A DNA stretch of 64,000 nt from Acidimicrobiia bacterium (GCA_965216945.1 CBDCGU010000003.1:3526653-3590652), one strand, 5' to 3'. Shown: positions 47,325 to 64,000, numbered from the stretch's first letter. The notes: generated by a model from the sequence alone, not told the origin. Numbers and translations are program-made.

Positions 47325-48536
47325 TCACACTCGGACGATCACGGCCTCAGCCTCGCCGATCCCTCCACATATGGACACCAATCCGACGAGTCGACGGCTG
47401 CCTGCGAGCGCGGCTCTCTGCCTCCTGAGCTCCAAGATTGCCGTCATTACGAGACGGGCAGCCGTTGCACCTGTGGGATGGCCGATCGCAATGGAGCCAC
47501 CATTCGGGTTGGTTCGGTTGCGGATGTCGACGACAAGTTCCGGGTCCTCGTCGGCCAGGAGCAGGGTCGATACCAGGGGAACGGCGGCGAATGCTTCGTT
47601 GATCTCGATCAGGTCGACATCCTCGAGATCCGTACCTGTTTTCTCGAGCGCCATGCGTGCAGCCACGGCCGGAATCGATGCGATCCGGTCGGGGTGCCCT
47701 GATGCCATCGACCATCCGTGAAGCGTCGCCAGGGGCTCGAGACCCCTTGCTTCAGCCTCACCAACCCGCATGAGTACGAGCGCACTCGCTCCCGAGCTCA
47801 ATCCAGGTGCGTTCCCTGCCGTGACCGTGGGGCTGCCGTAGATGGTCGGCAGAGCAGCGAGCTTCTCCATCGAGCTATCCGGACGGATCGACTCATCGCT
47901 GTCGAAGGTCCGCATCCCGCCGCGTTCCGAGATCTTCATCGGGACGATCTCGTCCACGAACTTGTGCTCGTCGACGGCGTGCTGGACGCGGAGGTGACTG
48001 CGGACTGCCCAGGCATCTTGTTCCTCGCGAGAGATGCCGTATTCGACTGCCTCCTCGCCGGCTTGGAGGGCCCTGGGCTTTCCGGTCATGGGGTCGGCGA
48101 TGACGAGTTGGTCCTTGAGAGTGACATCGCCGAGTTTGCTGCCCCATCGCTGGCGGGTGAGGAAATACGGAACGATGGACATGTTCTCGGTCCCGCCCGC
48201 CACGCCGATTCGTGCTTCGTCCAGCCGGAGTGATCGAGACACCATCGTTATGGCGGCGAGCGAAGAGCAACACGCTCGATCCACGGTATATGCGACTTTG
48301 CTCTCGGGGATTCCGGATTCGATCAGGACCTGGCGTGCGACCGATCGATCAGCTCCCGGCAGGTTGACGCCCATCCCGACCTCGTCGACATCGTCAGGCT
48401 CGAGTCCAGAGCGTTCCAGGGCAGCAGTAACGGCGACCGCACCGAGTTCCGGGAGGCTGAAATCGCGCAACGAGCCTCCAAACCGGCCAAATGGTGTGCG
48501 CGCAACGCCCACAACGGCGATGTCAGTCCTATCCAT
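47325..48536 (-). CDS. thiolase (acetyl-CoA C-acyltransferase) family protein
   Basis: VDRACCSSL active-site Cys region; C-terminal GGGIG. Confidence 0.85.
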   Translation of the reverse strand: MDRTDIAVVGVARTPFGRFGGSLRDFSLPELGAVAVTAALERSGLEPDDVDEVGMGVNLPGADRSVARQVLIESGIPESKVAYTVDRACCSSLAAITMVSRSLRLDEARIGVAGGTENMSIVPYFLTRQRWGSKLGDVTLKDQLVIADPMTGKPRALQAGEEAVEYGISREEQDAWAVRSHLRVQHAVDEHKFVDEIVPMKISERGGMRTFDSDESIRPDSSMEKLAALPTIYGSPTVTAGNAPGLSSGASALVLMRVGEAEARGLEPLATLHGWSMASGHPDRIASIPAVAARMALEKTGTDLEDVDLIEINEAFAAVPLVSTLLLADEDPELVVDIRNRTNPNGGSIAIGHPTGATAARLVMTAILELRRQRAALAGSRRLVGLVSICGGIGEAEAVIVRV

Positions 48537-48547
48537 CGTTCCTCCAG

Positions 48548-49780
48548 TCAGACAATCCCGCGCTCGACCAGTGCACGTACCTCGGATGCCCCGAGTCCTA
48601 TCTCGGCCAAGACCTCGCCCGTATGCTCGCCGAGAGCCGGGGGTGGTTCCGAACGGTTGGCGGCAGCACCGGACATCTTCACCGGCGAACCAACGACCCT
48701 CACGGTTCCCATCACCGGGTCGTCGATGTCGAGCATCAGCTGGCGTGCGGCCACGTGCGGGGAGTCGAAGACGTCATGGGCCGTATGGACGGGGCCGGCT
48801 GGCAGCCCTGCTTGGTCGAGGGCCGCGAGCGCCTCGGCCTTGGACCGCTCGTGGAACCATGTGCGGATCAAGTCGCCGAGCCAGCCGTCCATATTGCTGG
48901 CACGTTCGGTCCCGGACTCCGTTCCGGTTGCTCCCACGAGATCGGTTCGGCTGATCGCGTTGCAGAACCGTTGCCAATCCCGCTCCGTGGCGACGATCAA
49001 TGCGATCCACCCGTCGCGACACTCGAACGGTCCCCACGGTGCCATGAACGGTTCATTGCCTCGCTCCAGCACCCGACCGGTCAGCGAGTACGCGGTGACC
49101 GACCGCTCGGCCAGTGCCACCATCGAATCGAGCATCGCAACATCGACGTACTGGCCGATCCCCGTCTGTTGGCGATGGTAGAGAGCCAGCGTGATCGCAT
49201 GCGCGGCGTTCATGCCGGAGACGATGTCCCCCAAGGCAACGCCGAGCCAGGTGGGCGGCCCGCCGGCTTGACCACACGTGTTCATGAGTCCGCTCATGGC
49301 CTGGGCGACAATGTCGTACGCCGGGCGACCGCTGTAGGGTCCCTCGAAGCCCTCCGTGCTACCGAAACCGGTGATGCTGGCGAAGATCAATCCCGGGTTG
49401 TCGCCCTTCAAGTCGGCGTAGCCGAGTCCGAGGCTCGCCAACACTCCAGGCCTGAAATTCTCGATCACGACGTCCGAACGGGCCGCGAGGCGCCGAAACA
49501 CGTCCTGACCCTCTGCCGTCTTTATGTCGAGCGTGATGCTTCGCTTGTTGCGGTTGAAGCGGAGGAAGTAGCCGCTGCGACTATCACCGTCGTCATTGGT
49601 GACGATCGGTGCTCCGTGTCGAGCGGTGTCACCCGTACCAGGACGCTCGACCTTCACCACATCTGCACCTCGGTCGGCGAGCATCATCGAGCAGTAGGGG
49701 CCCGCGACCTGGATTTCGAAACTCAGTACCTTGATCCCGTCGAGGGGGAGTCCCATGGTGCCCAAGGCAGACGCCGTCAC
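48548..49780 (-). CDS. CaiB/BaiF family (class III) CoA-transferase
   Basis: GIKVLSFEIQVAGPYCSMMLADRGADVVKVERP N-terminal signature. Confidence 0.8.
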   Translation of the reverse strand: MTASALGTMGLPLDGIKVLSFEIQVAGPYCSMMLADRGADVVKVERPGTGDTARHGAPIVTNDDGDSRSGYFLRFNRNKRSITLDIKTAEGQDVFRRLAARSDVVIENFRPGVLASLGLGYADLKGDNPGLIFASITGFGSTEGFEGPYSGRPAYDIVAQAMSGLMNTCGQAGGPPTWLGVALGDIVSGMNAAHAITLALYHRQQTGIGQYVDVAMLDSMVALAERSVTAYSLTGRVLERGNEPFMAPWGPFECRDGWIALIVATERDWQRFCNAISRTDLVGATGTESGTERASNMDGWLGDLIRTWFHERSKAEALAALDQAGLPAGPVHTAHDVFDSPHVAARQLMLDIDDPVMGTVRVVGSPVKMSGAAANRSEPPPALGEHTGEVLAEIGLGASEVRALVERGIV

Positions 49781-50103
49781 TCCAGTTCCCCTGCGAGAAA
49801 TGCCGGGATCTCGAGTCTCAGGAGGGCCGTCGACATGGCCTTTCCCGTCTGGTCGAGGCGAAGGGTGCGCGTGGCACCGCCGCCGAGAGCGGACCTGCAG
49901 ACCACGTTGTACGAATGGATATTCGGCATTGGGTACACCTCGACATCGCCCTCGACCCAGCCGGCGAAGTGAGTCTTGATACGATCGGGCGTCAGCAGCT
50001 TGCCGATGGCATCGTAGAAGGCGGGCTCTTTGGCGATAACTCCGATGTTCGATACGTCTCCTTTGTCGCCCGACCGGGCAAACGCGATATCACGAAGCTG
50101 CAT
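49777..50103 (-). CDS. small DUF4387-like protein (the usual partner of AtuA-family proteins)
   Basis: 108 aa, LRDIA...SGDKGDVSN start; recalled family resemblance, not verified. Confidence 0.45.
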   Translation of the reverse strand: MQLRDIAFARSGDKGDVSNIGVIAKEPAFYDAIGKLLTPDRIKTHFAGWVEGDVEVYPMPNIHSYNVVCRSALGGGATRTLRLDQTGKAMSTALLRLEIPAFLAGELE

Positions 50104-50878
50104 CGTGATTCCCCTTCCATGATGGTGGACGCTTCTCGAGGAAAGACCGCACTCCCTCTCTCAACTCGGGGGAGTGGAGGAACGCCGGCCGTATCGCCTG
50201 ACCAAAAGCCACCGCATCGCGATAGGTCAGGTCTCTGATCTGGTTCAGATAGCGCCTACCGAGGGCGAGGGCCGCCGGGGGCTGGGCAGCGAGGCCGGTT
50301 GCGATCTCCATCGCCGCCGGAAGCAGGTCGTCGTGGGGGACCACCCGCGATATCAGGCCCATCGCCGCGGCTTCATCGGCGCCGAAGATCCGCCCGGTCA
50401 AGGCGAGCTCGCGGGCGATGCGGTCACCGACGGCCAGCCGCACGGCGGGCCAAACCATCAACGGAAAGAGCCCGATCCGAATCTCTGTGAGGCCGAATCT
50501 CGCACGGTCCGAAGACAGCGCGACATCGGCGAGGGCAACGATGCCACATCCGCCGGCCATGGCGGCGCCGTTGACGGCGCACACGACTGGGATCCCGAGG
50601 GCCGGCATCTCGACGAAGAGATCGTGCCAGCCGGCGCCGGAGGTCCACATCTCGCTGGCCGATTCGTCGAGTTCCAGCTCGAACTGTGCGAGGTCCGCAC
50701 CGGCCGAGAAGACAGATCCGGCTCCGGTGATCACCACACAACGTACGTCGGGGGCGCTGTCGGCCGCCTGCAGGTGTCTGAGGAGTTCAGCAACTCCGTC
50801 GTAGTCGAGTGCGTTCCGCTGATCTGGATCGTTGAGCGTTAGAAGCCGAACGGCGCCGCGAGTCTCGACCTCAATCAT
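50090..50878 (-). CDS. enoyl-CoA hydratase/isomerase (crotonase) family protein
   Basis: VITGAGSVFSAGADL and CAVNGAAMAGG oxyanion-hole motifs. Confidence 0.8.
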   Translation of the reverse strand: MIEVETRGAVRLLTLNDPDQRNALDYDGVAELLRHLQAADSAPDVRCVVITGAGSVFSAGADLAQFELELDESASEMWTSGAGWHDLFVEMPALGIPVVCAVNGAAMAGGCGIVALADVALSSDRARFGLTEIRIGLFPLMVWPAVRLAVGDRIARELALTGRIFGADEAAAMGLISRVVPHDDLLPAAMEIATGLAAQPPAALALGRRYLNQIRDLTYRDAVAFGQAIRPAFLHSPELREGVRSFLEKRPPSWKGNHDAAS

Positions 50879-52238
50879 CGACGCGATGCATCTTGGTTTC
50901 GACGTTGACGGCGTCTCGGTCGATGAGTGTTGGCCAGAGGCTGATGACCCGCCGCGGCCTCCCAGGCGGCGCAATCGCCGAGCCGACGCCGCCAAGCGTC
51001 CACAGGTGTAGCACCTCGCGCCGCACGGCGTCGGCCTCCTCGGCGGAGTCGCAGTGTGCTGCGACCCGCAAGCCCACCTCGTTGGGTTCGCAGGCGGGGT
51101 CGGGAGCGGACGGGCCGTGGAGCGTGTCGATGCCGACGTACTCGAAGTTGACGTCGCGTGGGTGGACGTCAACCGTCTTCAGCCGCTGTCTCACGATCTC
51201 CTCTCCCCGGCGTGCCTTGAGGTGTGCATCCGGCCAGGAGAACATGGCCATGCCCTCGCCGATCCACCCATCTTCGTACCCGACGCACACCTTGAGCTGG
51301 TCGGGCCGCGTCCGACCTGTCATTCCCGTGACCCGAACACGATCGTCGCCGAGATCCCGAATGGAAGGCTTGGTGAAGTCGGCGATCCCGTCTGGCATCA
51401 CGTAGCTCGCCGGATCGATGACCTCGTACAGCAGTTGCTCCTTGACGGTACGTTCGTTGAGGAGCCCGCCGGTGCCGTCGAGCTTGTGGAACTCGGCGTT
51501 GCCCGAGGCATCGACGTCAGCCATGGGGAAGCCGATGTTCCAGATGTCCGGTGCGTCATTCCAGAAGTTGGAGAGGGAGCCAGTGAGGAGAGCGGCACAC
51601 TCGAGCAGGTGACCGATGGTCACAGCCGCTCCACACAGCTCCGGCTGATCGTATGTCCATCCGAACTCGTGCATCATGGGGCCGACGTAGAGTGCGTTGT
51701 CCGATACACGCCCTGCGACAACCACGTGTGCGTCGTTCACGAGCCCCGCAACGATGCCTTCTGCGCCGATGTACGCATTGGCCGCCACGATCCGGGACTC
51801 GATCCTGGTGATATCGGTCTCGCCCGTGTCGAGGTTCGGAAACTTGGTTCCGCCGGACCAGAGCTCCCGCATCGTCTCGAGAACATCGTCGCCGGTCACG
51901 ACAGCGACCCTGGTGTCGTTGAGCCCGAACTCGGTGGCGATGCGAAGCACCTGTTCGGCTGCAGCGGGTGGATTGGCACCACCGGCGTTGGTGATCAGGC
52001 GGGTTCCCTGCGTGCGGGCTGTGGGGAGGATTGCCCGCATCCACGGCACGATGTCGCGGATGTAGCCGCGGTTTGGATCGGAGTTTCGCTGGCGCTGGAG
52101 GATGGCAAGCGTCAGCTCGGCGAGGTGGTCGAAGCAGAGGTAGTCCAGGTTTCCGCGTTCGGCGAGCTGGACGGCCGGCTCGAGCAAGTCGCCCCAGTAC
52201 GCCGAGCCGCTGCCGAGGCGGATGGTATGGCTTGTCAC
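50871..52238 (-). CDS. acyclic terpene utilisation AtuA family protein (DUF1446)
   Basis: HTIRLGSGSAYWGD N-terminal AtuA pattern; start moved downstream so the operator is not translated. Confidence 0.65.
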   Translation of the reverse strand: MTSHTIRLGSGSAYWGDLLEPAVQLAERGNLDYLCFDHLAELTLAILQRQRNSDPNRGYIRDIVPWMRAILPTARTQGTRLITNAGGANPPAAAEQVLRIATEFGLNDTRVAVVTGDDVLETMRELWSGGTKFPNLDTGETDITRIESRIVAANAYIGAEGIVAGLVNDAHVVVAGRVSDNALYVGPMMHEFGWTYDQPELCGAAVTIGHLLECAALLTGSLSNFWNDAPDIWNIGFPMADVDASGNAEFHKLDGTGGLLNERTVKEQLLYEVIDPASYVMPDGIADFTKPSIRDLGDDRVRVTGMTGRTRPDQLKVCVGYEDGWIGEGMAMFSWPDAHLKARRGEEIVRQRLKTVDVHPRDVNFEYVGIDTLHGPSAPDPACEPNEVGLRVAAHCDSAEEADAVRREVLHLWTLGGVGSAIAPPGRPRRVISLWPTLIDRDAVNVETKMHRVDD

Positions 52239-52254
52239 GGTTTCACCCACCCAA

Positions 52255-52274
52255 GAACGAGCGTTTGTTCGAAC
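52255..52274. promoter_or_regulatory. operator-family site GAACGAGCGTTTGTTCGAAC abutting the AtuA start
   Basis: Read directly. Confidence 0.4.
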
Positions 52275-52358: not shown

Positions 52359-53972
52359 TCAGTTCGGCTCGGTCGACCGGCTCGTGGGTGTCCATGGCAG
52401 CTGCCGGTCCCGCAAGCTGCGTTTGAGGACCTTGCCGCTCGGGGATACCGGGATGTCAGAGAGAGGAACCAAGGCGACCTTCTTCGGAATCTTGTAGCCC
52501 GCGAGGTGTCGTCTCAGGTACGCATCCAGCTCGTTGAGGGTCAGGTCACGCCCGGCCCGAAGTGCAACCACGGCACGGACCTCCTCGTCCCACTCTGCAC
52601 TGGGATATCCCAAGATCGCTGCTTCGGCGATGGAGGGGTGTGAATAGAACACCTGCTCGACCTCAGCCGAATACACGTTCTCCCCTCCGGACTTGATCAT
52701 GTCCTTCGCCCGGTCCCTGAAGAAGAAGTACCCGTCGGCGTCACGGGTCCCGAGATCGCCGGTGCGCAGCCAGCCACCCCGCAGTGCCGCGCTCGTGGCG
52801 TCCGGGCGTCGGAAATACCCCTGCATCACGTTGGGGCCGCGGACGCACAACTCCCCAACCTCGTCACTCGGGAGTTCTTCGTCTGACTCGGGATCGAGCG
52901 ATCGGACGGTCGCCTCCGTCAGCAGGAACTCCTGTCCGATCGAGCCGTCGATGTCGGTGCGGAACATGTCGGCGGGAAGAAGGCGAGTCACGATGGGACC
53001 TGCTTCGGTGAGGCCGTACTGGTAATAGATCTCCGTATCCGGCAGCGCAAGTCTGACGAGGTCCTTGTCCGGCATGCGCCACGTCGAACCCCCCGTGTAC
53101 AGGCGGGCCAGCGACGCCATCCTGCCGTGCTCGACGGCACCGCTCGCCAGGAGTCGCCTGATCATGTTTGGGACGAAGAAGCCGTTCGTCACGCCATGGC
53201 GTGCGATCAAGTCGACGGCATGTTCCTCATCGAAGGCTCTCATGAGCACGCTGGTTGCGCCCAGAAGGAGATGCGGAGCGAACCAACACAACAGCGATGC
53301 CGAGTGGAACATGGGTGCGATCAGGAGCGTGACGTCGCCAGGATGCATATTGGTGTCGATCGTCTCGTTGAGAGCGTTCGTCATGGCGTTCTGGTGCGTG
53401 AGTACGACACCCTTGGGGAAGCCGGTGGTGCCGCCGGTATAGATGATCACCATCGGCGAATCGGGAGTGATCGGTGCGGCTGGGTCGCCTGCCGAACTGA
53501 GAGTTTCATCGAGAGCCGGCCCACCGACGATTGTCTGTTCCAGTAGCTCGAGTTGACCGCTGTCTCGCGACGCCGTCACGAGGTCGACGAACTCGCTCTC
53601 GACGAGCAGGACCCGAGCCATCGAGTCATTCAGCGCAAAGACCAGCTCAGGCGTCGCCCACCTCGAGTTGTATTGAACGGCCACGGCACCTGCGCATGTG
53701 ATAGCAAGAAACGCCTCGACGGCAAAGACGCTGTTGCCGGACAGGAGACCAACCGCATCCCCAGGCTCGACTCCGCACCCGAGCAACATTCGGGACATCG
53801 CCCATACACGGCTGGCGAGGGTCTCGAAGGTCCGTTGCTCGCCATGGTCGTCGATGACCGCCACCTTGGAGGGGCTCCGTCGGCTGTTGATTCTCAGGAT
53901 GTCAGCGAACGTCAACATGGCTCTCTCCACATCAGGCTCGGCTCCGCGGGGCAGTGGGTCGATCACGTCCAT
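52359..53972 (-). CDS. AMP-dependent acyl-CoA synthetase/ligase
   Basis: IIYTGGTTGFPKGV AMP-binding motif; start may be the internal Met at 53918. Confidence 0.8.
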   Translation of the reverse strand: MDVIDPLPRGAEPDVERAMLTFADILRINSRRSPSKVAVIDDHGEQRTFETLASRVWAMSRMLLGCGVEPGDAVGLLSGNSVFAVEAFLAITCAGAVAVQYNSRWATPELVFALNDSMARVLLVESEFVDLVTASRDSGQLELLEQTIVGGPALDETLSSAGDPAAPITPDSPMVIIYTGGTTGFPKGVVLTHQNAMTNALNETIDTNMHPGDVTLLIAPMFHSASLLCWFAPHLLLGATSVLMRAFDEEHAVDLIARHGVTNGFFVPNMIRRLLASGAVEHGRMASLARLYTGGSTWRMPDKDLVRLALPDTEIYYQYGLTEAGPIVTRLLPADMFRTDIDGSIGQEFLLTEATVRSLDPESDEELPSDEVGELCVRGPNVMQGYFRRPDATSAALRGGWLRTGDLGTRDADGYFFFRDRAKDMIKSGGENVYSAEVEQVFYSHPSIAEAAILGYPSAEWDEEVRAVVALRAGRDLTLNELDAYLRRHLAGYKIPKKVALVPLSDIPVSPSGKVLKRSLRDRQLPWTPTSRSTEPN

Positions 53973-54001: not shown

Positions 54002-55141
54002 TCAGGCGAGCGGTGCTCGCTCGATGATGCGGCTGAGTCCGGCGCGCAACGTTTCTTCGCCGGTCGCCAGAGACACCCGCAGATGGTCTCGCGCCCTATT
54101 CCCGAAGGCGCTGCCAGGGGCGACCGCCACTCCGTGATCGATGAGCTTCAGCGCCGTCAGGCGAGAGTCCGTGTCCGGCACCAGCGGTAGCATCACGTAG
54201 AACGCACCCCCCGGTCTGCGCACAGGGTGACCGGCGTCGGCGAGGAAATCGACCACGAGGTCACGTCTCGATCGATAGGCAGCACGCATTTCGGCGACGC
54301 AATCCTGTGGTCCGGTCACAGCGGCTACCGCGGCGGCCTGGACGACAGAGGACACGCACGTGATGAGGGGCTCTTGGAGCACCCACAAGATCGGTGCCAA
54401 CCAGCGGGGTGCCACGACATACCCGATTCGCCACCCCGTCATCGCATACGTCTTCGACAAGCTGTACACGCCGACGACATGCTCCTCGTCGTACTGGTAG
54501 GCGTTGGCGGGGCTACCTTCGTAGACCAATTCGTCGTAGACTTCGTCAGAGATCACGGTGATATCGTGCTCCGCCGCGATCTCGACGATCCGTCGCACGA
54601 CGTGGGGTGGAAACACCGCTCCGGTGGGGTTCGAAGGTGAGTTGAGGCAGATGGCCGCGGTTCGATCCGTCACGAGGGACTCAATGTCCTCGGGGTTCGG
54701 CACGAAGTCGTTGTCCGGTCGTTGCGGGTAGGGGACTGCATCGGCGCCAAAGAGCGAAGCCAGCATCCCATAGTTTGGATAGCCTGGATCAGGCACGAGC
54801 ACCTCGCTGCCTGGGGTGACCAGCGCGGCAAATGCGAGCGAACATCCCTGCATGCCTCCACTGGTGACGACGATCTGGTCCTCGGCGACGTCGAGCTCAG
54901 AGTTCGCCCGGAGCTTGGTTCGGATCGCGGACCGCAACTCGGCTGAGCCGCCGCTCGCCGTGTATCCGGATCCCGTCGAGGCTGCCTTGTGTGCGGCCTC
55001 GACGATGTGCCACGGTGTTGAGAAATCCGGCTCGCCGATCTCGAGTCGGAGAATGTCGTCGCCGCGCTCGATCACGAGGTGCACGATCTCGCGGATTCCG
55101 GACGGAACGACGTTCGTGGCTCGGCTCGACGCTGTAGGCAT
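54002..55141 (-). CDS. pyridoxal phosphate-dependent aminotransferase (class I/II)
   Basis: Fold-type I aminotransferase pattern (SLSKTYAMTGWRIGY with Lys); AGGAGA RBS before ATG 55141. Confidence 0.8.
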   Translation of the reverse strand: MPTASSRATNVVPSGIREIVHLVIERGDDILRLEIGEPDFSTPWHIVEAAHKAASTGSGYTASGGSAELRSAIRTKLRANSELDVAEDQIVVTSGGMQGCSLAFAALVTPGSEVLVPDPGYPNYGMLASLFGADAVPYPQRPDNDFVPNPEDIESLVTDRTAAICLNSPSNPTGAVFPPHVVRRIVEIAAEHDITVISDEVYDELVYEGSPANAYQYDEEHVVGVYSLSKTYAMTGWRIGYVVAPRWLAPILWVLQEPLITCVSSVVQAAAVAAVTGPQDCVAEMRAAYRSRRDLVVDFLADAGHPVRRPGGAFYVMLPLVPDTDSRLTALKLIDHGVAVAPGSAFGNRARDHLRVSLATGEETLRAGLSRIIERAPLA

Positions 55142-55212
55142 GGTGCCCCTTCTCCTCATTCATCCCGGTACTGTTCCGAGCGGTCCATCCATCACCTTCA
55201 CGACACACGTTT

Positions 55213-56394: not shown

Positions 56395-56433
56395 CGCACA
56401 GGGTCGGATTGAGACGTTAACCTTAGCGAATGC

Positions 56434-56449
56434 GTACGAACGTTCGCTC
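56434..56449. promoter_or_regulatory. GTACGAACGTTCGCTC operator variant plus CTTCCC, in the divergent ACAD / LLM intergenic region
   Basis: Read directly. Confidence 0.45.
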
Positions 56450-56509
56450 GGCTTCCCCTGAGGCCTGCAATATCAGCATGATGTCCTGTGCTCTGGGGAC
56501 CGAGCCACC

Positions 56510-57274
56510 GTGAGGATCGGGTTGGTGCTGCCGGCGGAAGACCAGGCGACGGTGGCGATCGCGGCAGAAGAGGCTGGGCTCTTCGGTGTCATGGTGGATG
56601 GTGACGGAAGAGGATCTGGGGTGGTGGTGGCTGCCGGGATCGCGGCTCGCACTTTTGCGGTGCGCATCGTGGTGCTCGTCCGCCTGGATAGCGAGCACCC
56701 CGTCACGCTTGCGGAAGAGCTTGCGGTCCTGGACAACATCTCGAACGGCCGGTTGATCGTTGCGGTGGACCCGGGTCAGCTGACAGTCGCCCAAGCTGCC
56801 GAGGCGATCCTGTTGGTGCGCGAGTGTTGGTCTGGCCGACCGGTGCGGCATCGAGGTCCCCATTGGAGGGTCCCGGCCAACCTTCCCGGTCACGAGGCAC
56901 CGAGAAGCATCGTTGTCACTCCAAAGCCCGCCCAGATCGAGCCACACATATGGCTTGGTACGGCGGCCGATTCTGATTTGGCGGAGCTCACAGGCCTTCC
57001 GGTCATCGTGACGTCGCCGCTGGCAGAGCAGCAGCCGGGGCATGTTCAGCCGGGAAGGCTCCGTATCGCAGGTGACGCGGAGATCGATCGGCCGAGCGTG
57101 ACCGAGTGGGCGGACCGGGGTGCGACGCACCTGCTGCTCGATCTCGATGAAGTGCCGACGCCGGATACGCTCGCATACGTCGCCCGCTCTCTCGTACCCG
57201 TTGCCATGATGCCGGGCTTTCCCGAGGTTGTGGCCGAGCTCACCAACCCGCTACCTTGGCCGTCCGATCCCTGA
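56510..57274 (+). CDS. LLM class flavin-dependent oxidoreductase (short form)
   Basis: GTG start; luciferase-like N-terminal pattern. Confidence 0.55.
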   Translation: MRIGLVLPAEDQATVAIAAEEAGLFGVMVDGDGRGSGVVVAAGIAARTFAVRIVVLVRLDSEHPVTLAEELAVLDNISNGRLIVAVDPGQLTVAQAAEAILLVRECWSGRPVRHRGPHWRVPANLPGHEAPRSIVVTPKPAQIEPHIWLGTAADSDLAELTGLPVIVTSPLAEQQPGHVQPGRLRIAGDAEIDRPSVTEWADRGATHLLLDLDEVPTPDTLAYVARSLVPVAMMPGFPEVVAELTNPLPWPSDP

Positions 57275-57565: not shown

Positions 57566-58924
57566 TCACGATCGCATCATCGATACGAGATTGGTGGTGT
57601 ATGCGCCTTGGACAAAGGAAGGAGTGGTGAGCACCTCTTCGAGGAATGGCAGGTTCGTTTCGACGCCATCGATCACGAACTCACCCGCGGCGCGGCGGGC
57701 GCGAAGGATCGCATCGGGACGACTCTGGCCCCAAGCGACAACCTTGGCTAGCAGTGGATCATAGAAGGGCGTGATCTCGTCACCCTTGCGGTAACCAGAG
57801 TCCACGCGGATACCGTCGCCCGTCGGCTCGATCCACTCCGTAACAGGACCAGGTCTGGGGAGGAACCGTTGCGGGTCTTCGGCGTAGACCCGCAGTTCGA
57901 TGGCGTGACCCTTGGGCTGAGCGTCGTCGAGCGTTGGCGTCCGTGTGCCGCCACCCGCGATCCGAAGCTGTTGTTCAACGAGGTCCACTCCATGGACGGC
58001 CTCGGTGACAGGATGCTCGACCTGAATCCTTGCGTTCACCTCGAGGAACGAGAACTCATCACCGTGCAGCAAGAACTCGAAGGTACCTGCATTCTGGTAG
58101 CCGATCGCACGAGCTCCCTCACTGGCCGCGGTCTGCAGTCGTTCCCTCAACTCTTCCCCGATGCCAGGAGCCGGCGTCTCCTCCACTACCTTCTGGTGCC
58201 GGCGTTGTACCGAGCAATCTCGCTCCAGGAAGGTCACGACTTGCCCGTCCGGCATGCCAAGTATCTGGACCTCGATATGGCGTGCGTCCGGGTAGTACTT
58301 CTCCAGCAGCAGGCCCCCACCCCCGAAGAATCTGAGGGCCTGATCGCGAGCCTTGTCGATCGCCGGCAGCAAAGCTGCGGGGTCTTCGATGATGTGCATG
58401 CCGATGCCTCCGCCGCCGGCGGAGGCCTTGAGCATCACTGGAAATCCGATTTCAGCAGCGAGCGCGACGGCGTCGCTGTCGTCCGCAACGGGCCCTCCCG
58501 CACCCACCGGCACGTCGGCTTCCGCCATTCGACTGCGCGCCGCATTCTTGTCGCCAACAGTGGCGATCGATTCCGGGGACGGTCCCACCCACGTCATGCC
58601 TGCCGCCTCGACAGCCCGAGCAAACGGTGCGCTCTCGGCCAGGAACCCGTAGCCGGGGTGGACGGCGCGAGCTCCGCCGAACGTGGCCGCCCTCATGATG
58701 GATGCGATGTCCAGATACGACTCCGCCGGCGGCGGGGGGCCGATGACGTGGTAGCTGTCTGCCTCTGCGACGTGCCGGCTGGCCTCATCGGCGGTGGAGC
58801 AGACCGCGATGGTCTGAATGCCCAGCTTGCGAGCCGTCTCGATCACGCGACACGCGATCTCGCCGCGATTGGCGATGAGGAGAGGACTGAGCGATGTCAA
58901 AGACTCGCTAGACGGGATAGACAC
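57566..58924 (-). CDS. acyl-CoA carboxylase biotin carboxylase subunit
   Basis: ATP-grasp motifs (MLKASAGGGGIGM; EVNARIQVEHPVTE). Confidence 0.85.
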   Translation of the reverse strand: MSIPSSESLTSLSPLLIANRGEIACRVIETARKLGIQTIAVCSTADEASRHVAEADSYHVIGPPPPAESYLDIASIMRAATFGGARAVHPGYGFLAESAPFARAVEAAGMTWVGPSPESIATVGDKNAARSRMAEADVPVGAGGPVADDSDAVALAAEIGFPVMLKASAGGGGIGMHIIEDPAALLPAIDKARDQALRFFGGGGLLLEKYYPDARHIEVQILGMPDGQVVTFLERDCSVQRRHQKVVEETPAPGIGEELRERLQTAASEGARAIGYQNAGTFEFLLHGDEFSFLEVNARIQVEHPVTEAVHGVDLVEQQLRIAGGGTRTPTLDDAQPKGHAIELRVYAEDPQRFLPRPGPVTEWIEPTGDGIRVDSGYRKGDEITPFYDPLLAKVVAWGQSRPDAILRARRAAGEFVIDGVETNLPFLEEVLTTPSFVQGAYTTNLVSMMRS

Positions 58925-60470
58925 CGTTGCGCCGATCTCGTCGACCGATCGGTCGGGTGCTGTAGAGCTCGAAGCGGCGGATCAGCTCTTCACGCAGCTC
59001 TTCACCCGGCACGACAGCCTCGACGGCGTTGTCGGATGCCACCTCGAGGATGTCGATCTCTTCCTCGTACTCGGCTTGCTTCTTCATGACGAATCGTCTG
59101 CGCTCATCGAGGTCCGTGATCTCCTCCAGTCTTCTGGCGTAGATGGCATTGATGGCCGCCGCCGGGCCCATGAGCGCAGGCCGAGCCGTGGGGAGTGCGA
59201 TGAGCGCATCTGGCCCTGTGGGAGCGCCCGACATCGCGAGATAGCCACCGCCGTAGGCCTTGCGGACCATGACGGCGATCCGGGGTACGGTCGATTCGCA
59301 TACGGCGAAGAGCAGCTTCGCACCATGCCTGATGATGCCGTTCCTCTCGACGGCACTGCCGACCATGAACCCCGAGATGTCCTGGAGGAAGAGCAGCGGG
59401 ATGCCGAAAGCGTTGCAGAGCCAAATGAACCGCGCGGCCTTGTCGGACGAATCCGGGAACAGCACACCGGCACGAATCCGAGAGTTGTTGGCAACGATGC
59501 CGACCGATCTGCCACCCAACCTCGCGAAGCCGGTGATCAACTCCTTGGCGAACAGCTCTTTGATCTCGAAGAACGAACCTTCGTCGGCGAGCGCTTTGAT
59601 CAACTCGTGCATGTCAAAGGCAAGGTTCTCGCGTGTTGGCACGATCTCCTCGATCGATGGACCGGGAGCCGGCTCCTTAGCCTCGATCAATCGTTGGGGA
59701 CCGTCCCACCGCGCTGGAACGTAGGACAGGTACTGGCGGAGCGCGCCGATCGCCTCTTCGTCAGTCTCGACGAGCATGTCGCCGAGACCCGAGACGGAGC
59801 AGTGCATCCGCGCGCCGCCCATCTCCTCGAGAGTGACCTTCTCACCAGTGGCCATCTCGGCGAGGCGGGGGGACCCGATGTAGGCGGTGGCCCGGACATC
59901 CACCATCACGATGAAGTCACAGAGAGCGGGGACGTACGCAGACCCCGCGGGACTCGGCCCAAACATCGCGCAGATCTGCGGTACCCGGCCGGACAGCTGG
60001 ATCTGGTTGTAGAAGATGTTGCCCCACGCACGGCGCCCGACGTAGCTCTCGAATTGCTCGTTGATCCGTGCACCTGCGGAATCGACGAGGTACACGACCG
60101 GCGCACCGGCTTCAACGGCGACCTCTTGGATGCGGGTGATCTTCTCGAACGTCTTGCGGCCCCACGTGCCTGCTTTGACCGTGTAGTCGTTGGCGATGAC
60201 GGCCACCAGTGAGCCGTCGACCTTGCCAAACGCCGTCACGACCGCGTCGCCCGGCAGATTCTCGCTCGTGCGTGCCAACAGTCCATCCTCGATCTGCCAT
60301 CCGTCGTCGAACAACAGATCGAGCCTGTCTCTCACCAGCATCTTGCCCGCGACGAGCTGCTTGCGTCGTGCCTCTTCGGACCCGCCGAGCCGTGCGGACT
60401 CGTTGGCCCGGCGAACGGTGTCGGATACCGACTCGTGTTCGGGTCGTGTTTCGCCAGTTCTCGATACCAT
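58908..60470 (-). CDS. acyl-CoA carboxylase carboxyltransferase (beta) subunit
   Basis: Carboxyltransferase N and C domain pattern; start at MVSRTGETRP. Confidence 0.85.
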   Translation of the reverse strand: MVSRTGETRPEHESVSDTVRRANESARLGGSEEARRKQLVAGKMLVRDRLDLLFDDGWQIEDGLLARTSENLPGDAVVTAFGKVDGSLVAVIANDYTVKAGTWGRKTFEKITRIQEVAVEAGAPVVYLVDSAGARINEQFESYVGRRAWGNIFYNQIQLSGRVPQICAMFGPSPAGSAYVPALCDFIVMVDVRATAYIGSPRLAEMATGEKVTLEEMGGARMHCSVSGLGDMLVETDEEAIGALRQYLSYVPARWDGPQRLIEAKEPAPGPSIEEIVPTRENLAFDMHELIKALADEGSFFEIKELFAKELITGFARLGGRSVGIVANNSRIRAGVLFPDSSDKAARFIWLCNAFGIPLLFLQDISGFMVGSAVERNGIIRHGAKLLFAVCESTVPRIAVMVRKAYGGGYLAMSGAPTGPDALIALPTARPALMGPAAAINAIYARRLEEITDLDERRRFVMKKQAEYEEEIDILEVASDNAVEAVVPGEELREELIRRFELYSTRPIGRRDRRNGVYPV

Positions 60471-60522
60471 GCAGTCCACAGCCTTCTCGTCGGCATCCAG
60501 CGGCACAGGACGCTGAGAGCGA

Positions 60523-60540
60523 CGAACGAACGATCGTATG
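60523..60540. promoter_or_regulatory. operator variant CGAACGAACGATCGTATG in the divergent carboxyltransferase / MaoC intergenic region
   Basis: Read directly. Confidence 0.4.
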
Positions 60541-60662: not shown

Positions 60663-61163
60663 ATGTCAACCACTCCACAGAACGGCGGTCCGGCGGAATC
60701 CGCCGATCGAGGACTCTACGATCGATTCTGGGAAGACTTCCCGAGAGGACGGTCTATCACCACGCGTGGCGTCACCGTCACGGAAGCGCACATTGTGGGT
60801 TGGGCGAATCTTGCAGGCGACTGGCTACCTATTCACGTTGACCAGAACGTCTCCTCCCAGAACCACTTTGGTGGCGTGGTGGCACACGGGCCGCTCACCT
60901 TTGCGCTTGCGCTCGGCCTCGTCACACAGAGCGGCATATTTGGTGACGGTGTCCTCGCATGGCTCGGTGTGGACGACCTGCGGCTTCCGCGACCGGTTCG
61001 GCCCGGCGACACTATCTACGTGGACGTCGAAGTGCTCGAGCAGGCGGAGACGTCACGACCCGAACGGGGCAGGGTGACGCTTCAATACACCGTGAACAAC
61101 CAGCACGGTGAGACGGTTATTCACTTCCGATCGACCCTACTCATGAGGAGGGTCGGCGGCTGA
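60663..61163 (+). CDS. MaoC family dehydratase (hot-dog fold, R-specific enoyl-CoA hydratase-like)
   Basis: HVDQNVSSQNHFGGVVAHGPLT hot-dog motif. Confidence 0.75.
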   Translation: MSTTPQNGGPAESADRGLYDRFWEDFPRGRSITTRGVTVTEAHIVGWANLAGDWLPIHVDQNVSSQNHFGGVVAHGPLTFALALGLVTQSGIFGDGVLAWLGVDDLRLPRPVRPGDTIYVDVEVLEQAETSRPERGRVTLQYTVNNQHGETVIHFRSTLLMRRVGG

Positions 61164-61262: not shown

Positions 61263-61280
61263 CGAACGAACACTCGCTCG
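61263..61280. promoter_or_regulatory. operator variant CGAACGAACACTCGCTCG about 50 nt upstream of the 2-oxoacid dehydrogenase E1 alpha gene
   Basis: Read directly. Confidence 0.35.
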
Positions 61281-61329: not shown

Positions 61330-62388
61330 ATGAGGAGAGAGCGCTTGCTGCAGATTCTCGATGAGCGTGGACACCTTGTCGGCCCTGTTCCGGAGGGTCT
61401 GGACGAAGGAGTGCTCACTTCGATGATGCGTCTCATGCTCTTGGGCCGTGAGATCGACGGCAAGGCAGTGTCGCTTCAGCGGCGAGGCAAACTAGGCACT
61501 TATGCCCCACTGTCGGGACAAGAAGCGTGTTCGGTCGGCAGTGCGTTCGCAGTTGTTCCCGGTGTGGACTATCTCGTGCCGCAGTATCGGGAACAGCTGG
61601 CGATGTTGCGCTTCGGGTTGCCTCTCGGCATCTATCTTCTCCAACGTTACGGGCACCCGCTCGGCGCCCAACTCCCCGACCACGGCACGCTGTTCCCTCA
61701 GCAGGTCGCTCTCGGTTCTCACCTGCCCCACGCCACCGGGCTCGCCTGGGGGCTTCGGTTGCGAGGAGTGAGCGCTGTCGTCTTGTGTCACTTCGGAGAC
61801 GGTGCCAGCTCGCAAGGCGACTTTCACGAGGCGCTCAACCTTGCCGGCGTGAAGAAGGCGCCAGTGATCTTCTTCTGCCAGAACAACCAATGGGCCATCT
61901 CTGTGCCCACGCGTGAGCAGACCGCCGCCACCGCAATCGCAGATCGTGCTACAGGGTTGGGCGTTTTCGGTCAGCGGGTCGACGGAAACGACATCCTCGC
62001 GGTCTATGAGGCAACGCGCGTCGCAAAAGCGAGAGCGCTTGCTGGCGACGGACCAACCCTGATCGAAGGAGTGACCTACCGTCTTGGTGCGCACACGACC
62101 GCAGATGATCCGACGCTGTACATCGATGCAGCGGAGCTCGACGAGGCCCGGAGCCGTGATCCCATCTCGCGATTCCGGACGTGGCTCACTGCCGAAGGGC
62201 TTTGGGACGAGACGCTCGAGGCGAAAGCGGAAGAAGAGATCGAACGCGTGATCGAGGATGCGATCGAGGTCTTCGATGCCGCCGGTGAGGCCGACCCCAC
62301 AGCGATGTTCGCCCACGTCTACGCGGAGGATTCCCAGCGTCTCATCCGACAGCGAGAGGAATTCGAAGCCTCTTTGGGAGAGGCGTAA
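61330..62388 (+). CDS. thiamine-diphosphate-dependent 2-oxoacid dehydrogenase E1 component alpha subunit (branched-chain/pyruvate type)
   Basis: GDGASSQGDFHEALNLA TPP-binding motif. Confidence 0.85.
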   Translation: MRRERLLQILDERGHLVGPVPEGLDEGVLTSMMRLMLLGREIDGKAVSLQRRGKLGTYAPLSGQEACSVGSAFAVVPGVDYLVPQYREQLAMLRFGLPLGIYLLQRYGHPLGAQLPDHGTLFPQQVALGSHLPHATGLAWGLRLRGVSAVVLCHFGDGASSQGDFHEALNLAGVKKAPVIFFCQNNQWAISVPTREQTAATAIADRATGLGVFGQRVDGNDILAVYEATRVAKARALAGDGPTLIEGVTYRLGAHTTADDPTLYIDAAELDEARSRDPISRFRTWLTAEGLWDETLEAKAEEEIERVIEDAIEVFDAAGEADPTAMFAHVYAEDSQRLIRQREEFEASLGEA

Positions 62389-63365
62389 TGGCCGTTCTCA
62401 CCATGATCGAGTCAATTCGGCATGCGCTCGAGTTCGAGTTGGAGCGGGATCCGCGGGTGATGTTGTTCGGCGAGGATGTTGGGCGGCTTGGTGGGGTCTT
62501 CCGCGCGACGCAAGGTCTGCGCGACAGGTTCGGAGCGGAGAGGGTCGCCGATACGCCGGATTCGGAGAGTGCGATCATCGGCGCAACGATCGGGCTTGCT
62601 GCTGCCGGGCTCGTTCCGGTCGCTGAGATTCAGTTCCTTCCGTTTGCCCATCACGGCTTCCACCAGCTCGGTTTCCAGTTGGCAAGGTTTCGATATCGAA
62701 CGCTGGGCAAGTTCCCCCTTCAGGTCACGATCCGCGCCCCGTATGGCGGCAGTGTCCACGCACCGGAGCTGCATTCGGACGCATTTGAGTCCATGCTCGC
62801 CAACGGCCCTGGGCTCAAGATCGTCGCGCCGTCGACGGCCGCCGATGCGAAGGGTCTCCTACTGTCGTCGATTCGCGATCACGACCCCGTGGTGTATATG
62901 GAGCCGCTTAAGGGCTACAGGCTGGTGAAGGACGATGTGCCCGACGGGGATCACACGGTGCCCCTCGGCGTCGCGCGGGTTGCGAGGAGAGGTAGCGACG
63001 TGTCTGTGTTCGCTTGGAGCTACCAGGTCCACAATGCCTTGGAGGCCGCCGAGCTCGCCGAGAGGCTTGGCATAAGTGTGGAAGTAGTCGACCTTCGGTC
63101 GCTCGTGCCGCTCGACGAGGCTGCAATTGCCGAGTCCGTCACGAAGACGGGCCGAGCAGTTGTCGTCGAGGAGGCGCCGCGGACGGCCGGTTTTGGGGCT
63201 GAAGTTGTGGCCACCATCCAGGATCTCGTGTTCCTCGACCTCGAGGCTCCCGTCCGCCGTGTGTCCGGATACGACATACCGTACCCGATGCCGCTGCTCG
63301 AGAATTACCACATTCCAACGCCGCAGCGGATCCTCGGTGCGGTTGCGAAGACCGTGGAGTTCTAG
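62388..63365 (+). CDS. 2-oxoacid dehydrogenase E1 component beta subunit
   Basis: Transketolase-like pyrimidine-binding and C-terminal domains; TAATG overlap with the alpha subunit. Confidence 0.85.
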   Translation: MAVLTMIESIRHALEFELERDPRVMLFGEDVGRLGGVFRATQGLRDRFGAERVADTPDSESAIIGATIGLAAAGLVPVAEIQFLPFAHHGFHQLGFQLARFRYRTLGKFPLQVTIRAPYGGSVHAPELHSDAFESMLANGPGLKIVAPSTAADAKGLLLSSIRDHDPVVYMEPLKGYRLVKDDVPDGDHTVPLGVARVARRGSDVSVFAWSYQVHNALEAAELAERLGISVEVVDLRSLVPLDEAAIAESVTKTGRAVVVEEAPRTAGFGAEVVATIQDLVFLDLEAPVRRVSGYDIPYPMPLLENYHIPTPQRILGAVAKTVEF

Positions 63366-63368
63366 GCG

Positions 63369-64000
63369 GTGGCTCTGGAGTTCCGGCTGCCCGATGTCGG
63401 GGAGGGTCTGGCCGAGGCCGAGATCGTGCAATGGCGAGTTGCTGCTGGTGACGTGGTTGCGATGGACTCGGTCCTCGTTGAGATCGAGACGGATAAAGCG
63501 ATCGTCGAGATCCCGGCGCCCGTCGATGGCACGATCCTTCGCCTCGGAGCTGAAGAGGGCGAGACCATCGCGGTTGGAAGTATCTTGGTTGTCATCGATG
63601 ACGGGAGTGACGACGCGGATAGCGAGACCATTGCGCCCGCTGTAATCCCGGCCTCGACTTCGGACGTGCCATCGGCCGGCGTGTCAAGAAGGCCGACACC
63701 CCACAGGCCAAGGGCGACACCGGCGACGCGCAGTCGAGCACGCAAGCTCGGTGTAGACCTGGCCGACGTCACGCCCACTGGTCCGGGAGACCGCATCACG
63801 GATGCAGATGTCGAGCGGGCCGCTGCCGCTGAGGTCGTCGTGTCCGCCTCCACGATGCCTTCCTCCGCGGAACCAACTGGATTGCACGAGGCTCCACTCG
63901 CTGGTGACAAGCGTGTTCCGCTCAAGGGCGTGCGTGCTACCACGGCACGAGTCATGCTCGAGTCATGGCAGTCGGTACCCCACGTCTCGTCGATGCACGA
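63369..64000 (+). CDS. dihydrolipoamide acyltransferase E2 component, 3' end truncated by window edge (GTG start)
   Basis: Own translation: lipoyl domain (VEIETDKAIVEIPAPVDGTI), then E3/E1-binding domain (ARKLGVDLADVTPTGPGDRITDADVE). Not in the ORF track because the frame is open at the window end. Confidence 0.7.
   Translation, partial: MALEFRLPDVGEGLAEAEIVQWRVAAGDVVAMDSVLVEIETDKAIVEIPAPVDGTILRLGAEEGETIAVGSILVVIDDGSDDADSETIAPAVIPASTSDVPSAGVSRRPTPHRPRATPATRSRARKLGVDLADVTPTGPGDRITDADVERAAAAEVVVSASTMPSSAEPTGLHEAPLAGDKRVPLKGVRATTARVMLESWQSVPHVSSMH

Follow-up and report, generated by a model that had tools for sequence, protein, structure and literature searches.

A 64-kb stretch of DNA from an Acidimicrobiia bacterium (GCA_965216945.1, CBDCGU010000003.1:3526653-3590652; 64,000 nucleotides, here called the window, G+C about 63% throughout) carries, between 46.5 and 64 kb, a set of genes for acyl-CoA catabolism that includes a three-subunit biotin-dependent carboxylase and a lyase of the AtuA family. 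Coordinates are positions within the window, unless one of the fetched comparison loci (labelled L001 etc.) is named. The first-pass annotation had described the genes as an Atu/Liu-like cluster of unusual composition, resembling the geranyl-CoA carboxylase (GCC) and methylcrotonyl-CoA carboxylase (MCC) pathways and followed by an operon for a branched-chain 2-oxoacid dehydrogenase (BCKDH). The locus therefore raises the question of whether it is a rearranged Atu or Liu cluster, and which acyl-CoA it degrades.

In the reading favored here with moderate confidence, the region is a TetR-controlled catabolic cluster providing a Liu/Atu-type bypass for acyl-CoAs in which a 3-methyl (3-alkyl) branch blocks beta-oxidation. 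The resemblance to the Atu and Liu pathways held for the logic of carboxylase, hydratase and AtuA-type lyase, AtuA and its small partner adjoining a carboxyltransferase (CT) gene in 51 loci and the AtuA tree tracking the type of CT, and failed for the lineage of the CT. Because this CT belongs to the lineage of Bacillus YngE, the cluster would be a parallel version of the pathway and not a rearranged Atu or Liu cluster. It is a real, co-regulated unit, and no new type of system but a widespread, so far unstudied version of a pathway already known.

Lineage of the carboxylase

Compared with solved structures, the CT of the window scored 360 bits with the Thermotoga protein 1vrg, which resembles the beta subunit of propionyl-CoA carboxylase (PCC), 335 bits with Streptomyces PccB, 310 bits with AccD1, 272-278 bits with MCC-beta and 227 bits with the GCC-beta of Pseudomonas (5ikl_B). 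The CT of a classical-type locus (L061) gave 537 bits with Pseudomonas MCC-beta, 494 bits with AccD1 of Mycobacterium tuberculosis and 454 bits with GCC-beta. Specificity residues matching those of an ordinary PCC were not found in the window CT: the position of PccB Asp422 is Leu (GGGYLAM), and several loops, including those of the N-domain, are MCC-like, as are the motifs 'YLVDSAGAR...' with a three-residue insertion, 'AYVPAL' and 'LLFLQDISGFMVG'. The clade is a motif hybrid of the PCC and MCC types, and this hybrid set is shared with YngE. A database search showed that the clade is common in cultured Actinomycetota (65-70% identity), where one member is named 'Carboxylase YngE'.

The window CT was 52% identical to Bacillus YngE over 512 aa, the biotin carboxylase (BC) 45% to YngH, and the biotin carboxyl carrier protein (BCCP) 41% to YngHB. 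For comparison across genomes, 80 loci with AtuA relatives were fetched and the window proteins were mapped onto them by tblastn; 26 non-duplicate loci whose CT was 56-77% identical to that of the window are referred to as type 1. In a neighbor-joining (NJ) tree YngE joined the type-1 CT clade in 100 of 100 bootstraps. The MCC/GCC clade, which includes AccD1, was recovered equally often and left the window CT outside, so that the suggested resemblance to the geranyl-CoA and methylcrotonyl-CoA carboxylase pathways does not extend to the lineage of the CT (34-37% identity to MCC-beta and AccD1). By sequence, the CT appears as a separate lineage that includes YngE and is neither ordinary PCC-beta nor MCC/GCC-beta; only a separate lineage is claimed because the tree is unrooted and has no outgroup. 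A placement with PCC-beta from the same tree was dropped. The tree separates the YngE clade and MCC from PCC and the delta clade, but among four groups such a split says no more than that PCC pairs with the delta clade, and it is therefore uninformative.

The yng operon of Bacillus amyloliquefaciens (L087), located by tblastn, encodes an acyl-CoA dehydrogenase (ACAD), an AMP-ligase, a BC (449 aa), a BCCP (70 aa), 3-hydroxy-3-methylglutaryl-CoA (HMG-CoA) lyase, a crotonase and a CT. Bacillus yngJIHGFE thus shares with the window the carboxylase lineage and its three-subunit architecture, with ACAD, acyl-CoA synthetase and crotonase genes alongside. It differs in having the HMG-CoA lyase YngG, where the window has AtuA with its small subunit, a thiolase and a CoA-transferase; the window adds a MaoC hydratase, an aminotransferase, a luciferase-like monooxygenase (LLM) and the E1/E2 genes of a 2-oxoacid dehydrogenase. 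No homologue of HMG-CoA lyase was found by tblastn with Bacillus YngG in the window or in any of the fetched type-1 loci. The substrate of the Yng carboxylase is predicted to be 3-methylcrotonyl-CoA, and no biochemical data on it were found in the literature. Two records filed as Bacillus plasmids, NZ_CP154897.1 (L087) and NZ_CP093325.1, carry chromosomal housekeeping operons (yng, bio and galU), one of the records having a length of 5.5 Mb; both are probably chromosomes or chromosome fragments that have been mislabelled.

The same CT lineage is found with yet another lyase in Amycolatopsis (L091), where it is operonic with two MaoC hydratases and an HpcH/CitE-type lyase and AtuA is absent. 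Beside a hydratase, then, this one carboxylase lineage has lyases from three unrelated families as partners (HMG-CoA lyase, HpcH/CitE and AtuA), and this is the strongest argument that its product would be a 3-alkylglutaconyl-CoA and not methylmalonyl-CoA. It is proposed from these gene neighborhoods that AtuA and its small subunit occupy the place of HMG-CoA lyase beside the same carboxylase lineage.

HpcH/CitE-type lyase genes lie at 17156-18037 in the Amycolatopsis locus and, beside AtuA, after the BCCP gene of an Armatimonadota operon (L084, 16064-16846), so that two different lyases may act in one module. In Rhodococcus the CT lineage is accompanied by an acyl-CoA synthetase, an ACAD and a TetR protein 42-54% identical to those of the window, the ACAD of the R. 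koreensis CT cluster sharing 54% identity with the window ACAD. The YngE-type CT of R. ruber (pmega_1, L088) and R. koreensis (L090) is located on a megaplasmid, with a fused BC-BCCP and without AtuA, and is flanked by genes for short-chain dehydrogenases/reductases (SDRs), an old yellow enzyme (OYE), EthD proteins, a thioesterase and an acetate symporter (ActP/DUF485). The carboxylase lineage thus stands in another setting here.

The AtuA-type lyase and the conserved module

Both members of the hallmark pair of the Atu pathway are present in the window, namely PF07287 and PF23544, the latter on a separate gene of 108 aa. The small protein had been called DUF4387-like; it matches PF23544, the AtuA ferredoxin-like domain, and not PF14330/DUF4387. 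It accompanies AtuA in nearly every related locus, and its motifs RSGDKGD and GGGAT.T...D.TGK are invariant. Alignment with E. coli ECs_0759 (PF14330) by hhalign was not significant (probability 3.7%), the two proteins being alike in size; a profile search of the PDB with the small subunit gave no real hit, and its single-sequence model was poor (pLDDT 55).

A single-sequence search of the PDB with AtuA gave no match, whereas the fold search and the profile search did. The fold matches a solved AtuA-family lyase, the citramalate lyase CmlA (PDB 9ERQ/9EVF, 18% identity), and the AtuA-family (A1) profile hits 'Citramalate lyase, subunit A (cmlA)' with an E value of 7e-6, with the motifs GR..D and ECAA in common. 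CmlAB converts citramalate to pyruvate and acetate (the Raoultella enzyme was used in bioRxiv 10.64898/2026.01.16.699985). ThnQS converts a carboxy-acyl-CoA that carries a tertiary alcohol to a 3-oxoacyl-CoA, which is then split by the thiolase ThnV (PMC12016498, citing unpublished data). By analogy with these enzymes, AtuA-family proteins can now be regarded as C-C lyases that release acetate from tertiary 3-hydroxy acids; the common chemistry would be the retro-aldol release of an acetate unit, which from a CoA ester would leave a 3-oxoacyl-CoA. A CoA-ester type of lyase, with predicted acetate-releasing activity, fits the window AtuA because it is 48-54% identical to AtuA proteins from classical-type loci and is adjoined by a thiolase.

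Of these two systems, CmlAB (ECs_0760/0759 in E. coli O157) shares the large-subunit fold and motifs with the window at only 18% identity. Its Cml-like partner in E. coli is a PF14330 protein, whereas that of the window belongs to PF23544, and it acts on a free dicarboxylate in a glutamate/mesaconate context without carboxylase or thiolase, both of which the window has. ThnQ/ThnS is closer in arrangement: a two-component AtuA-like lyase acts on a CoA ester with a tertiary hydroxyl and a neighboring carboxyl group, its 3-oxoacyl-CoA product is split by a cluster-encoded thiolase, and CoA-transferase, ACAD and hydratase genes lie in the same operon (PMC12016498). The Thn route, which belongs to naphthalene degradation in anaerobic Deltaproteobacteria, differs in its alicyclic substrate and in needing no carboxylase, because this substrate already bears a carboxyl group.

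In E. coli O157:H7 Sakai (L086, 46933-48617), RefSeq names the AtuA-family gene (ECs_0760) '3-methylaspartate ammonia-lyase' and the 105-aa DUF4387 gene (ECs_0759) 'acyl-CoA synthetase'. By position and family the two appear to encode a citramalate lyase of the CmlA/CmlB type, and both names look like misannotations.

The nearest relatives of the window AtuA (about 75% identity) were found in metagenome-assembled genomes (MAGs) of Euzebyales and Nitriliruptorales. AtuA and its small partner adjoin a biotin carboxyltransferase gene in 51 non-duplicate related loci. Among the type-1 loci the recurring order is class III CoA-transferase, thiolase, AtuA, crotonase, (MaoC), small subunit, CT, BC and BCCP. 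It occurs in Nitriliruptoria, Chloroflexota and Armatimonadota, and Bacillota, Atribacterota and Dormibacterota have part of it. Orthologues in the module were 56-77% (CT), 52-73% (AtuA) and 62-68% (thiolase) identical to the window proteins. The thiolase gene was adjacent to AtuA in 13 of the 26 loci; the CoA-transferase (56-69% identity) was present in 12, the aminotransferase (41-47%) in seven, and MaoC in 18, where in Chloroflexota and Armatimonadota it lies between crotonase and small subunit. The placement of the crotonase between the two lyase genes is shared by Nitriliruptoria, Chloroflexota and Armatimonadota.

The link to a 2-oxoacid dehydrogenase is also conserved. E1alpha orthologues (45-63% identity) adjoin the module in L029, L032, L033, L039 and L041, and E1/E2 genes, recognized by Pfam only, are present in L084. 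This Armatimonadota contig carries on one strand LLM, E1alpha, E1beta, E2, a B12-dependent mutase, CoA-transferase, thiolase, AtuA, crotonase, MaoC, small subunit, CT, BC, BCCP and the HpcH lyase, followed by amino-acid ABC transport genes and a gene for a LivJ-like binding protein. In Dormibacterota the core consists of small subunit, CT, AtuA and LLM; the aminotransferase gene is divergent from the small subunit-CT-AtuA operon, and aminotransferase, a nearby acyl-CoA synthetase and TetR are 41-56% identical to those of the window. In Dormibacterota, Rhodococcus and Amycolatopsis this CT type has an acyl-CoA synthetase orthologue (49-56% identity) as neighbor, and the module is accompanied by LLM genes in L084, L085 and L012.

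The composition of the cluster is therefore not unusual, as had been supposed, since split BC and BCCP, class III CoA-transferase, thiolase and interposed crotonase are conserved across several phyla. Because the same architecture recurs in them, comparison of the loci suggests that the flagged features (split BC/BCCP, CoA-transferase, aminotransferase and interposed crotonase) are ancestral to the module. No description of an AtuA-coupled YngE-type module was found in the searchable literature.

In another 25 loci, from Proteobacteria, Nocardioides, Gordonia and Terrabacter and including L061, the CTs were only 34-39% identical to that of the window. AtuA and the small subunit are thus linked to CTs of three different lineages, and the AtuA tree mirrors the type of linked CT, which argues that lyase and carboxylase stayed together over a long evolution and are functionally coupled. 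The third CT group is found at AtuA loci of Deltaproteobacteria/Myxococcota (L046, L048-L051, L058, L065, L071 and L075; L048 and L071 were placed in the CT tree and the others assigned by identity and the AtuA tree). Its motifs, GGCAAGQAYSPLL and RKAYGGTLPIF, are distinct from those of the MCC/GCC and YngE types.

The mutase seen in L084 (5871-7547; about 525-560 aa) is present also in L002, L006, L007, L008-L010, L019, L029, L032, L036, L037, L039 and L055. Of these loci, L008 is from Intrasporangium calvum, a carrier that can be cultivated. The best PDB match of the mutase was the 2-hydroxyisobutyryl-CoA mutase HcmA, from which it differs by a carboxylate-binding Tyr and Arg, of the methylmalonyl-CoA mutase (MCM) type, in place of Ile90 and Gln208, and by the absence of Asp117.

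Operator motif and gene content

The sites that had been named as operators at 52255, 56434, 60523 and 61263 exist, with matching coordinates, and share a palindromic core of roughly AACGAACGyTCGyTnG. The pattern ACGAACGNTCGNTCG, with up to two mismatches, matched 32 times in the window, where 6.05 +/- 3.0 matches were expected; none of 100 shuffles reached 32. The motif recurs in the Nitriliruptoria upstream of the same genes, namely atuA (L001, L002, L006 and L041), maoC (L002 and L006) and the CT gene (L002), and this conservation argues for a real cis-element.

The TetR gene at 46541 encodes the only TetR homologue detected by tblastn in the 64-kb window, and orthologues (42-51% identity) lie within or beside the module in L002, L006, L007, L085, L090 and L091. 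For the operator motif, this protein is the evident candidate repressor. Its position had been likened to that of AtuR. In Pseudomonas, AtuR is divergent from atuA and binds inverted repeats in the atuR-atuA intergenic region; the TetR gene of the window lies about 5 kb from atuA and is convergent with the thiolase gene, so the position is not AtuR-like, though in relatives the orthologues do lie inside the module.

Seven or more other sites are spread over the interval from 23 to 45 kb (near 23.1, 24.9, 34.05, 34.2, 41.5, 43.4 and 44.7 kb), where they precede LLM, amidohydrolase, SDR and OYE genes. Together with the conserved sites and the single TetR, they support the earlier suggestion that the cluster is tied to a larger regulon, and an operator and candidate TetR pair can be defined for a regulon of at least 38 kb. 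The block at 23000-46500 that shares the motif encodes at least five luciferase-like monooxygenases, two Amidohydro_2 proteins, two SDRs, a molybdenum hydroxylase (FAD-binding and MoCoBD subunits), an ABC transporter, a TauE sulfite exporter, an OYE flavoprotein and a sulfite-oxidase-like molybdenum enzyme with an N-terminal cupin. The block may be an island of organosulfonate or alicyclic catabolism supplying the cluster. At 23097-23118 four overlapping pattern matches fall within an (ACGT)n-like stretch, ACGTACGTACGTTCG, which may be a composite or double operator or a low-complexity coincidence.

The gene list of the first-pass annotation proved correct, every gene being an intact open reading frame (ORF) with a strong Pfam match (Table 1). 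The start codons of CT, MaoC, crotonase and AtuA were refined, that of AtuA (52238) agreeing with a 100% identical database protein; the ATG of the crotonase (50878) overlaps the stop codon of AtuA. The LLM gene, which had been counted in the minus-strand run, lies between the ACAD and BCCP genes on the opposite strand, and only the N-terminal half of its product matches the profile. The stand-alone BCCP is likewise present, its true ORF being that of 78 aa and not a longer overlapping one, which had no Pfam match. No E3 gene was found within the window, and a megablast search of the region against plasmids gave nothing useful.

Table 1. Genes and operator-like sites of the cluster (aa, amino acids; E, E value; PLP, pyridoxal phosphate; PDH, pyruvate dehydrogenase)
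Feature	Position	Strand	Evidence
TetR-family regulator, candidate repressor	46541-47170	+	Pfam: TetR_N + TetR_C_24
Thiolase, acetoacetyl-CoA thiolase type	47325-48536	-	Thiolase_N + Thiolase_C; TIGR01930 361 bits (cut-off 240.55)
Class III CoA-transferase	48548-49780	-	CoA_transf_3 412 bits
Small AtuA_ferredoxin protein, 108 aa, putative lyase small subunit	49777-50103	-	PF23544, 99 bits, E 2.5e-28
Crotonase-family enoyl-CoA hydratase	50090-50878	-	ECH_1 177 bits
AtuA-family lyase large subunit	50871-52238	-	PF07287 439 bits
Operator-like palindromic site, 16 bp upstream of AtuA start	52254-52271
AMP-forming acyl-CoA synthetase	52359-53972	-	AMP-binding + AMP-binding_C
Class I/II PLP aminotransferase	54002-55159	-	Aminotran_1_2 221 bits
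ACAD	55213-56394	-	Four ACAD domains
Operator-like site, divergent ACAD/LLM intergenic region; best consensus match, zero mismatches	56433-56450
Short luciferase-like protein (LLM)	56510-57274	+	Bac_luciferase E 2.5e-14, residues 10-155 only
Stand-alone BCCP, 78 aa	57314-57550	-	Biotin_lipoyl; NF004547 84 bits (cut-off 75); ESMKMEI
BC, 452 aa	57566-58924	-	Biotin_carb_N, CPSase_L_D2, Biotin_carb_C; no BT or BCCP domain
CT, YngE lineage	58908-60470	-	Carboxyl_trans 481 bits
Operator-like site, divergent CT/MaoC intergenic region	60522-60540
MaoC-type (R)-specific enoyl-CoA hydratase	60663-61163	+	MaoC_dehydratas 82 bits
Operator-like site, 50 bp upstream of E1alpha	61266-61280
2-oxoacid dehydrogenase E1alpha, PDH/BCKDH type	61330-62388	+	E1_dh 268 bits
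2-oxoacid dehydrogenase E1beta	62388-63365	+	Transket_pyr + Transketolase_C
2-oxoacid dehydrogenase E2	63369-64000 (gene interrupted by window end)	+	Biotin_lipoyl, E3_binding, start of 2-oxoacid_dh

None of the cluster enzymes reached an NCBIfam equivalog cut-off, and for this reason the specific enzyme names used here are putative. For the CoA-transferase the best NCBIfam models were the succinyl-CoA:mesaconate and succinate-glutarate CoA-transferases, both below cut-off, and the crotonase gave 138 bits with the gamma-carboxygeranoyl-CoA hydratase model of AtuE type (NF004227, cut-off 426). Sequence comparison of ACAD and crotonase with the PDB revealed no substrate. E1alpha and E1beta, with an E2 that has lipoyl and E3-binding domains and, up to the window end, the start of the catalytic domain, have the architecture of a complex with heterotetrameric E1. 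The genes of the predicted BCKDH operon are thus present, and E1alpha (396 bits with TIGR03181, cut-off 411) does not separate it by score from a PDH of the Gram-positive type.

Proposed pathway and alternatives

The gene content, homology, conserved synteny and AtuA fold match suggest the following steps, in which the substrates, the step order and the carboxylation regiochemistry are predictions. A branched free acid would be activated by the acyl-CoA synthetase, or an amino acid would be transaminated and its 2-oxoacid decarboxylated oxidatively by E1alpha/E1beta/E2, either route giving a branched acyl-CoA. ACAD would convert this to a 3-methyl-2-enoyl-CoA, of which the YngE/YngH/YngHB-type carboxylase (CT, BC and the 78-aa BCCP) would carboxylate the methyl group to form a 3-alkylglutaconyl-CoA. 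Hydration by crotonase and/or MaoC would give the tertiary alcohol 3-hydroxy-3-alkylglutaryl-CoA, and the two-subunit AtuA lyase would cut it on the free-carboxyl side to acetate and a 3-oxoacyl-CoA, in contrast to HMG-CoA lyase, which gives acetyl-CoA and a free 3-oxoacid. The adjacent thiolase would split the 3-oxoacyl-CoA, and the class III CoA-transferase may recycle acetate by re-activating it or move CoA from one carboxyl group to another. Among possible substrates, 3-methylcrotonyl-CoA from leucine or isovalerate is the most likely, in which case HMG-CoA would yield acetate and acetoacetyl-CoA, and the latter two acetyl-CoA. A serious alternative is a larger acid with a methyl branch, produced by the upstream genes under the same control.

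In M. tuberculosis the Liu pathway takes the form BCKDH-CitE-MaoC-FadE19-AccA1-AccD1, and the hydratase of mycobacteria is of the MaoC type. With the Liu system (LiuA-E) the window shares the association of 2-oxoacid dehydrogenase, ACAD, biotin carboxylase, hydratase and C-C lyase and the most likely substrate. It differs in lacking a lyase of the HMG-CoA lyase or CitE type, in its CT (34-37% identical to MCC-beta/AccD1 and outside their clade) and in its predicted products, acetate and acetoacetyl-CoA instead of acetyl-CoA and acetoacetate. The Pseudomonas Atu system (atuA-H/atuR) likewise combines AtuA and the ferredoxin-like domain, biotin carboxylase, crotonase, ACAD, acyl-CoA synthetase and TetR in one cluster and follows the same logic of carboxylation, hydration and removal of acetate. 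Its carboxylase alpha subunit is a fused BC-BT-BCCP protein of about 650-700 aa, whereas the window has a BC of 452 aa and a separate 78-aa BCCP; the window CT is outside the MCC/GCC clade, two separate genes encode the lyase and enclose the crotonase, and class III CoA-transferase, thiolase, MaoC, aminotransferase and E1/E2 are added.

Several observations weigh against a leucine-type bypass. The unrooted tree shows no sister relation of the CT to MCC, identity to YngJ, YngI and YngF is as low as 28-34% for the ACAD, acyl-CoA synthetase and crotonase, and the function of the Bacillus yng operon is itself a prediction (PMC517825). The ACAD is of a generic short-chain type, scoring 139-153 bits with isovaleryl-CoA dehydrogenase (IVD) structures against 170-184 bits with the FadE3/short-chain ACAD type, and E1alpha gave 255 bits with Geobacillus PDH, 228 bits with Thermus BCKDH and 213 bits with human BCKDH. 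The aminotransferase belongs to class I/II, while the usual branched-chain aminotransferase is of class IV. The scheme leaves the roles of CoA-transferase, second hydratase and LLM unexplained, and the regulation shared with LLM, OYE, amidohydrolase and sulfite-handling genes may point away from leucine as the substrate.

These points bear on two other readings. As a further point against the bypass, the CT is slightly closer overall to the PCC-beta types (40%, 335-360 bits) than to MCC-beta/AccD1 (34-37%, 278-310 bits), and its C-domain motif 'RKAYGGGYLAMSG' is PCC-like, as expected of a propionyl- or butyryl-CoA carboxylase that acts at the alpha position and is followed by a B12-dependent mutase (PCC/MCM or ethylmalonyl-CoA pathway). 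A large subunit of such a mutase is in the module in 15 fetched related loci, and with its MCM-type Tyr and Arg it fits alpha-carboxylation and rearrangement better than Liu logic. CoA-transferase, MaoC and AtuA would then act on C5-dicarboxylates (mesaconate, itaconate, citramalate), with cleavage of citramalate to acetate and pyruvate and E1/E2 as PDH; the succinyl-CoA:mesaconate CoA-transferase model as best NCBIfam match of the CoA-transferase, weak matches of MaoC to itaconyl-/mesaconyl-CoA hydratases, the identity of the sole solved AtuA-family enzyme as a citramalate lyase, the closeness of E1alpha to Geobacillus PDH and the HpcH/CitE-type lyase at the end of the Armatimonadota operon agree with this. 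This reading is nevertheless rather unlikely, since the window AtuA is 18% identical to CmlA but about 50% to classical-type AtuA, the small subunit is PF23544 and not PF14330 as in the Cml-like pair of E. coli, no mutase was found in the window, the Asp422 position is Leu with several MCC-like loops, and Bacillus has HMG-CoA lyase in one operon with this CT lineage. The reading also leaves the tightly linked thiolase without a role, whereas in the Thn pathway a thiolase follows the lyase. If the mechanism is kept and the substrate is a larger methyl-branched or alicyclic acid from the upstream genes, the module would end a specialised catabolic island, comparable to ThnQS for naphthalene and AtuA for terpenes. 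The shared operators upstream, the recurrence of OYE, SDR, LLM, EthD and acyl-CoA synthetase genes beside the CT lineage in L002, Rhodococcus and Amycolatopsis, the conserved acyl-CoA synthetase, which implies entry of a free acid, and an ACAD that is not IVD-like all point this way; the high conservation of the module over distant phyla beside E1/E2, amino-acid ABC transporters and LivJ-like proteins suggests a common metabolite instead, the upstream gene content varies among relatives, and the Bacillus counterpart contains HMG-CoA lyase, so this substrate is judged unlikely.

A genuine Atu cluster for acyclic terpenes (citronellol/geraniol) with GCC was rejected as very improbable despite its parallel gene set, given the CT scores (227 bits with Pseudomonas GCC-beta against 360 bits with 1vrg), the separate BC and BCCP without a BT domain, the low score of the crotonase with the AtuE-type model, and the ties of the module to a 2-oxoacid dehydrogenase and an aminotransferase and its spread in MAGs of Chloroflexota, Armatimonadota and Dormibacterota. 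A steroid C/D-ring cluster (KstR2-type) was rejected because such clusters have no carboxylase, and a glutaconyl-CoA decarboxylase because BC is present and the membrane subunit absent.

The bypass for 3-methyl-branched acyl-CoAs remains the favored reading. Tentatively, it can be extended beyond the window: many Chloroflexota, Armatimonadota, Dormibacterota and Nitriliruptoria, and other Actinomycetota too, may have an undescribed route for the breakdown of leucine, isovalerate or further 3-methyl-branched acyl-CoAs, in which gamma-carboxylation by a third (YngE-type) lineage of biotin carboxyltransferase is followed by cleavage, by a two-subunit AtuA-type lyase, of HMG-CoA, or a 3-alkyl analogue, to acetate and acetoacetyl-CoA in place of HMG-CoA lyase. 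Should the mechanism fail, the region would still be a well-delimited conserved module that deserves consistent annotation. If it is true, a physiological role would be given to the YngE-type carboxylases, which are widespread in Bacillus and Actinomycetota and are now generically called 'acyl-CoA carboxylase subunit beta', and the AtuA-family lyases (CmlAB, ThnQS) would be extended to central branched-chain catabolism. It would also explain how several poorly studied phyla pass the beta-methyl block without HMG-CoA lyase, an absence seen in the fetched loci. The three-subunit carboxylase and the acetate-releasing CoA-ester lyase could serve in pathway engineering. The interest of the module lies mainly in how widely it is spread over phyla that have received little study and in the prospect of assigning functions to two enzyme families that are poorly characterised.

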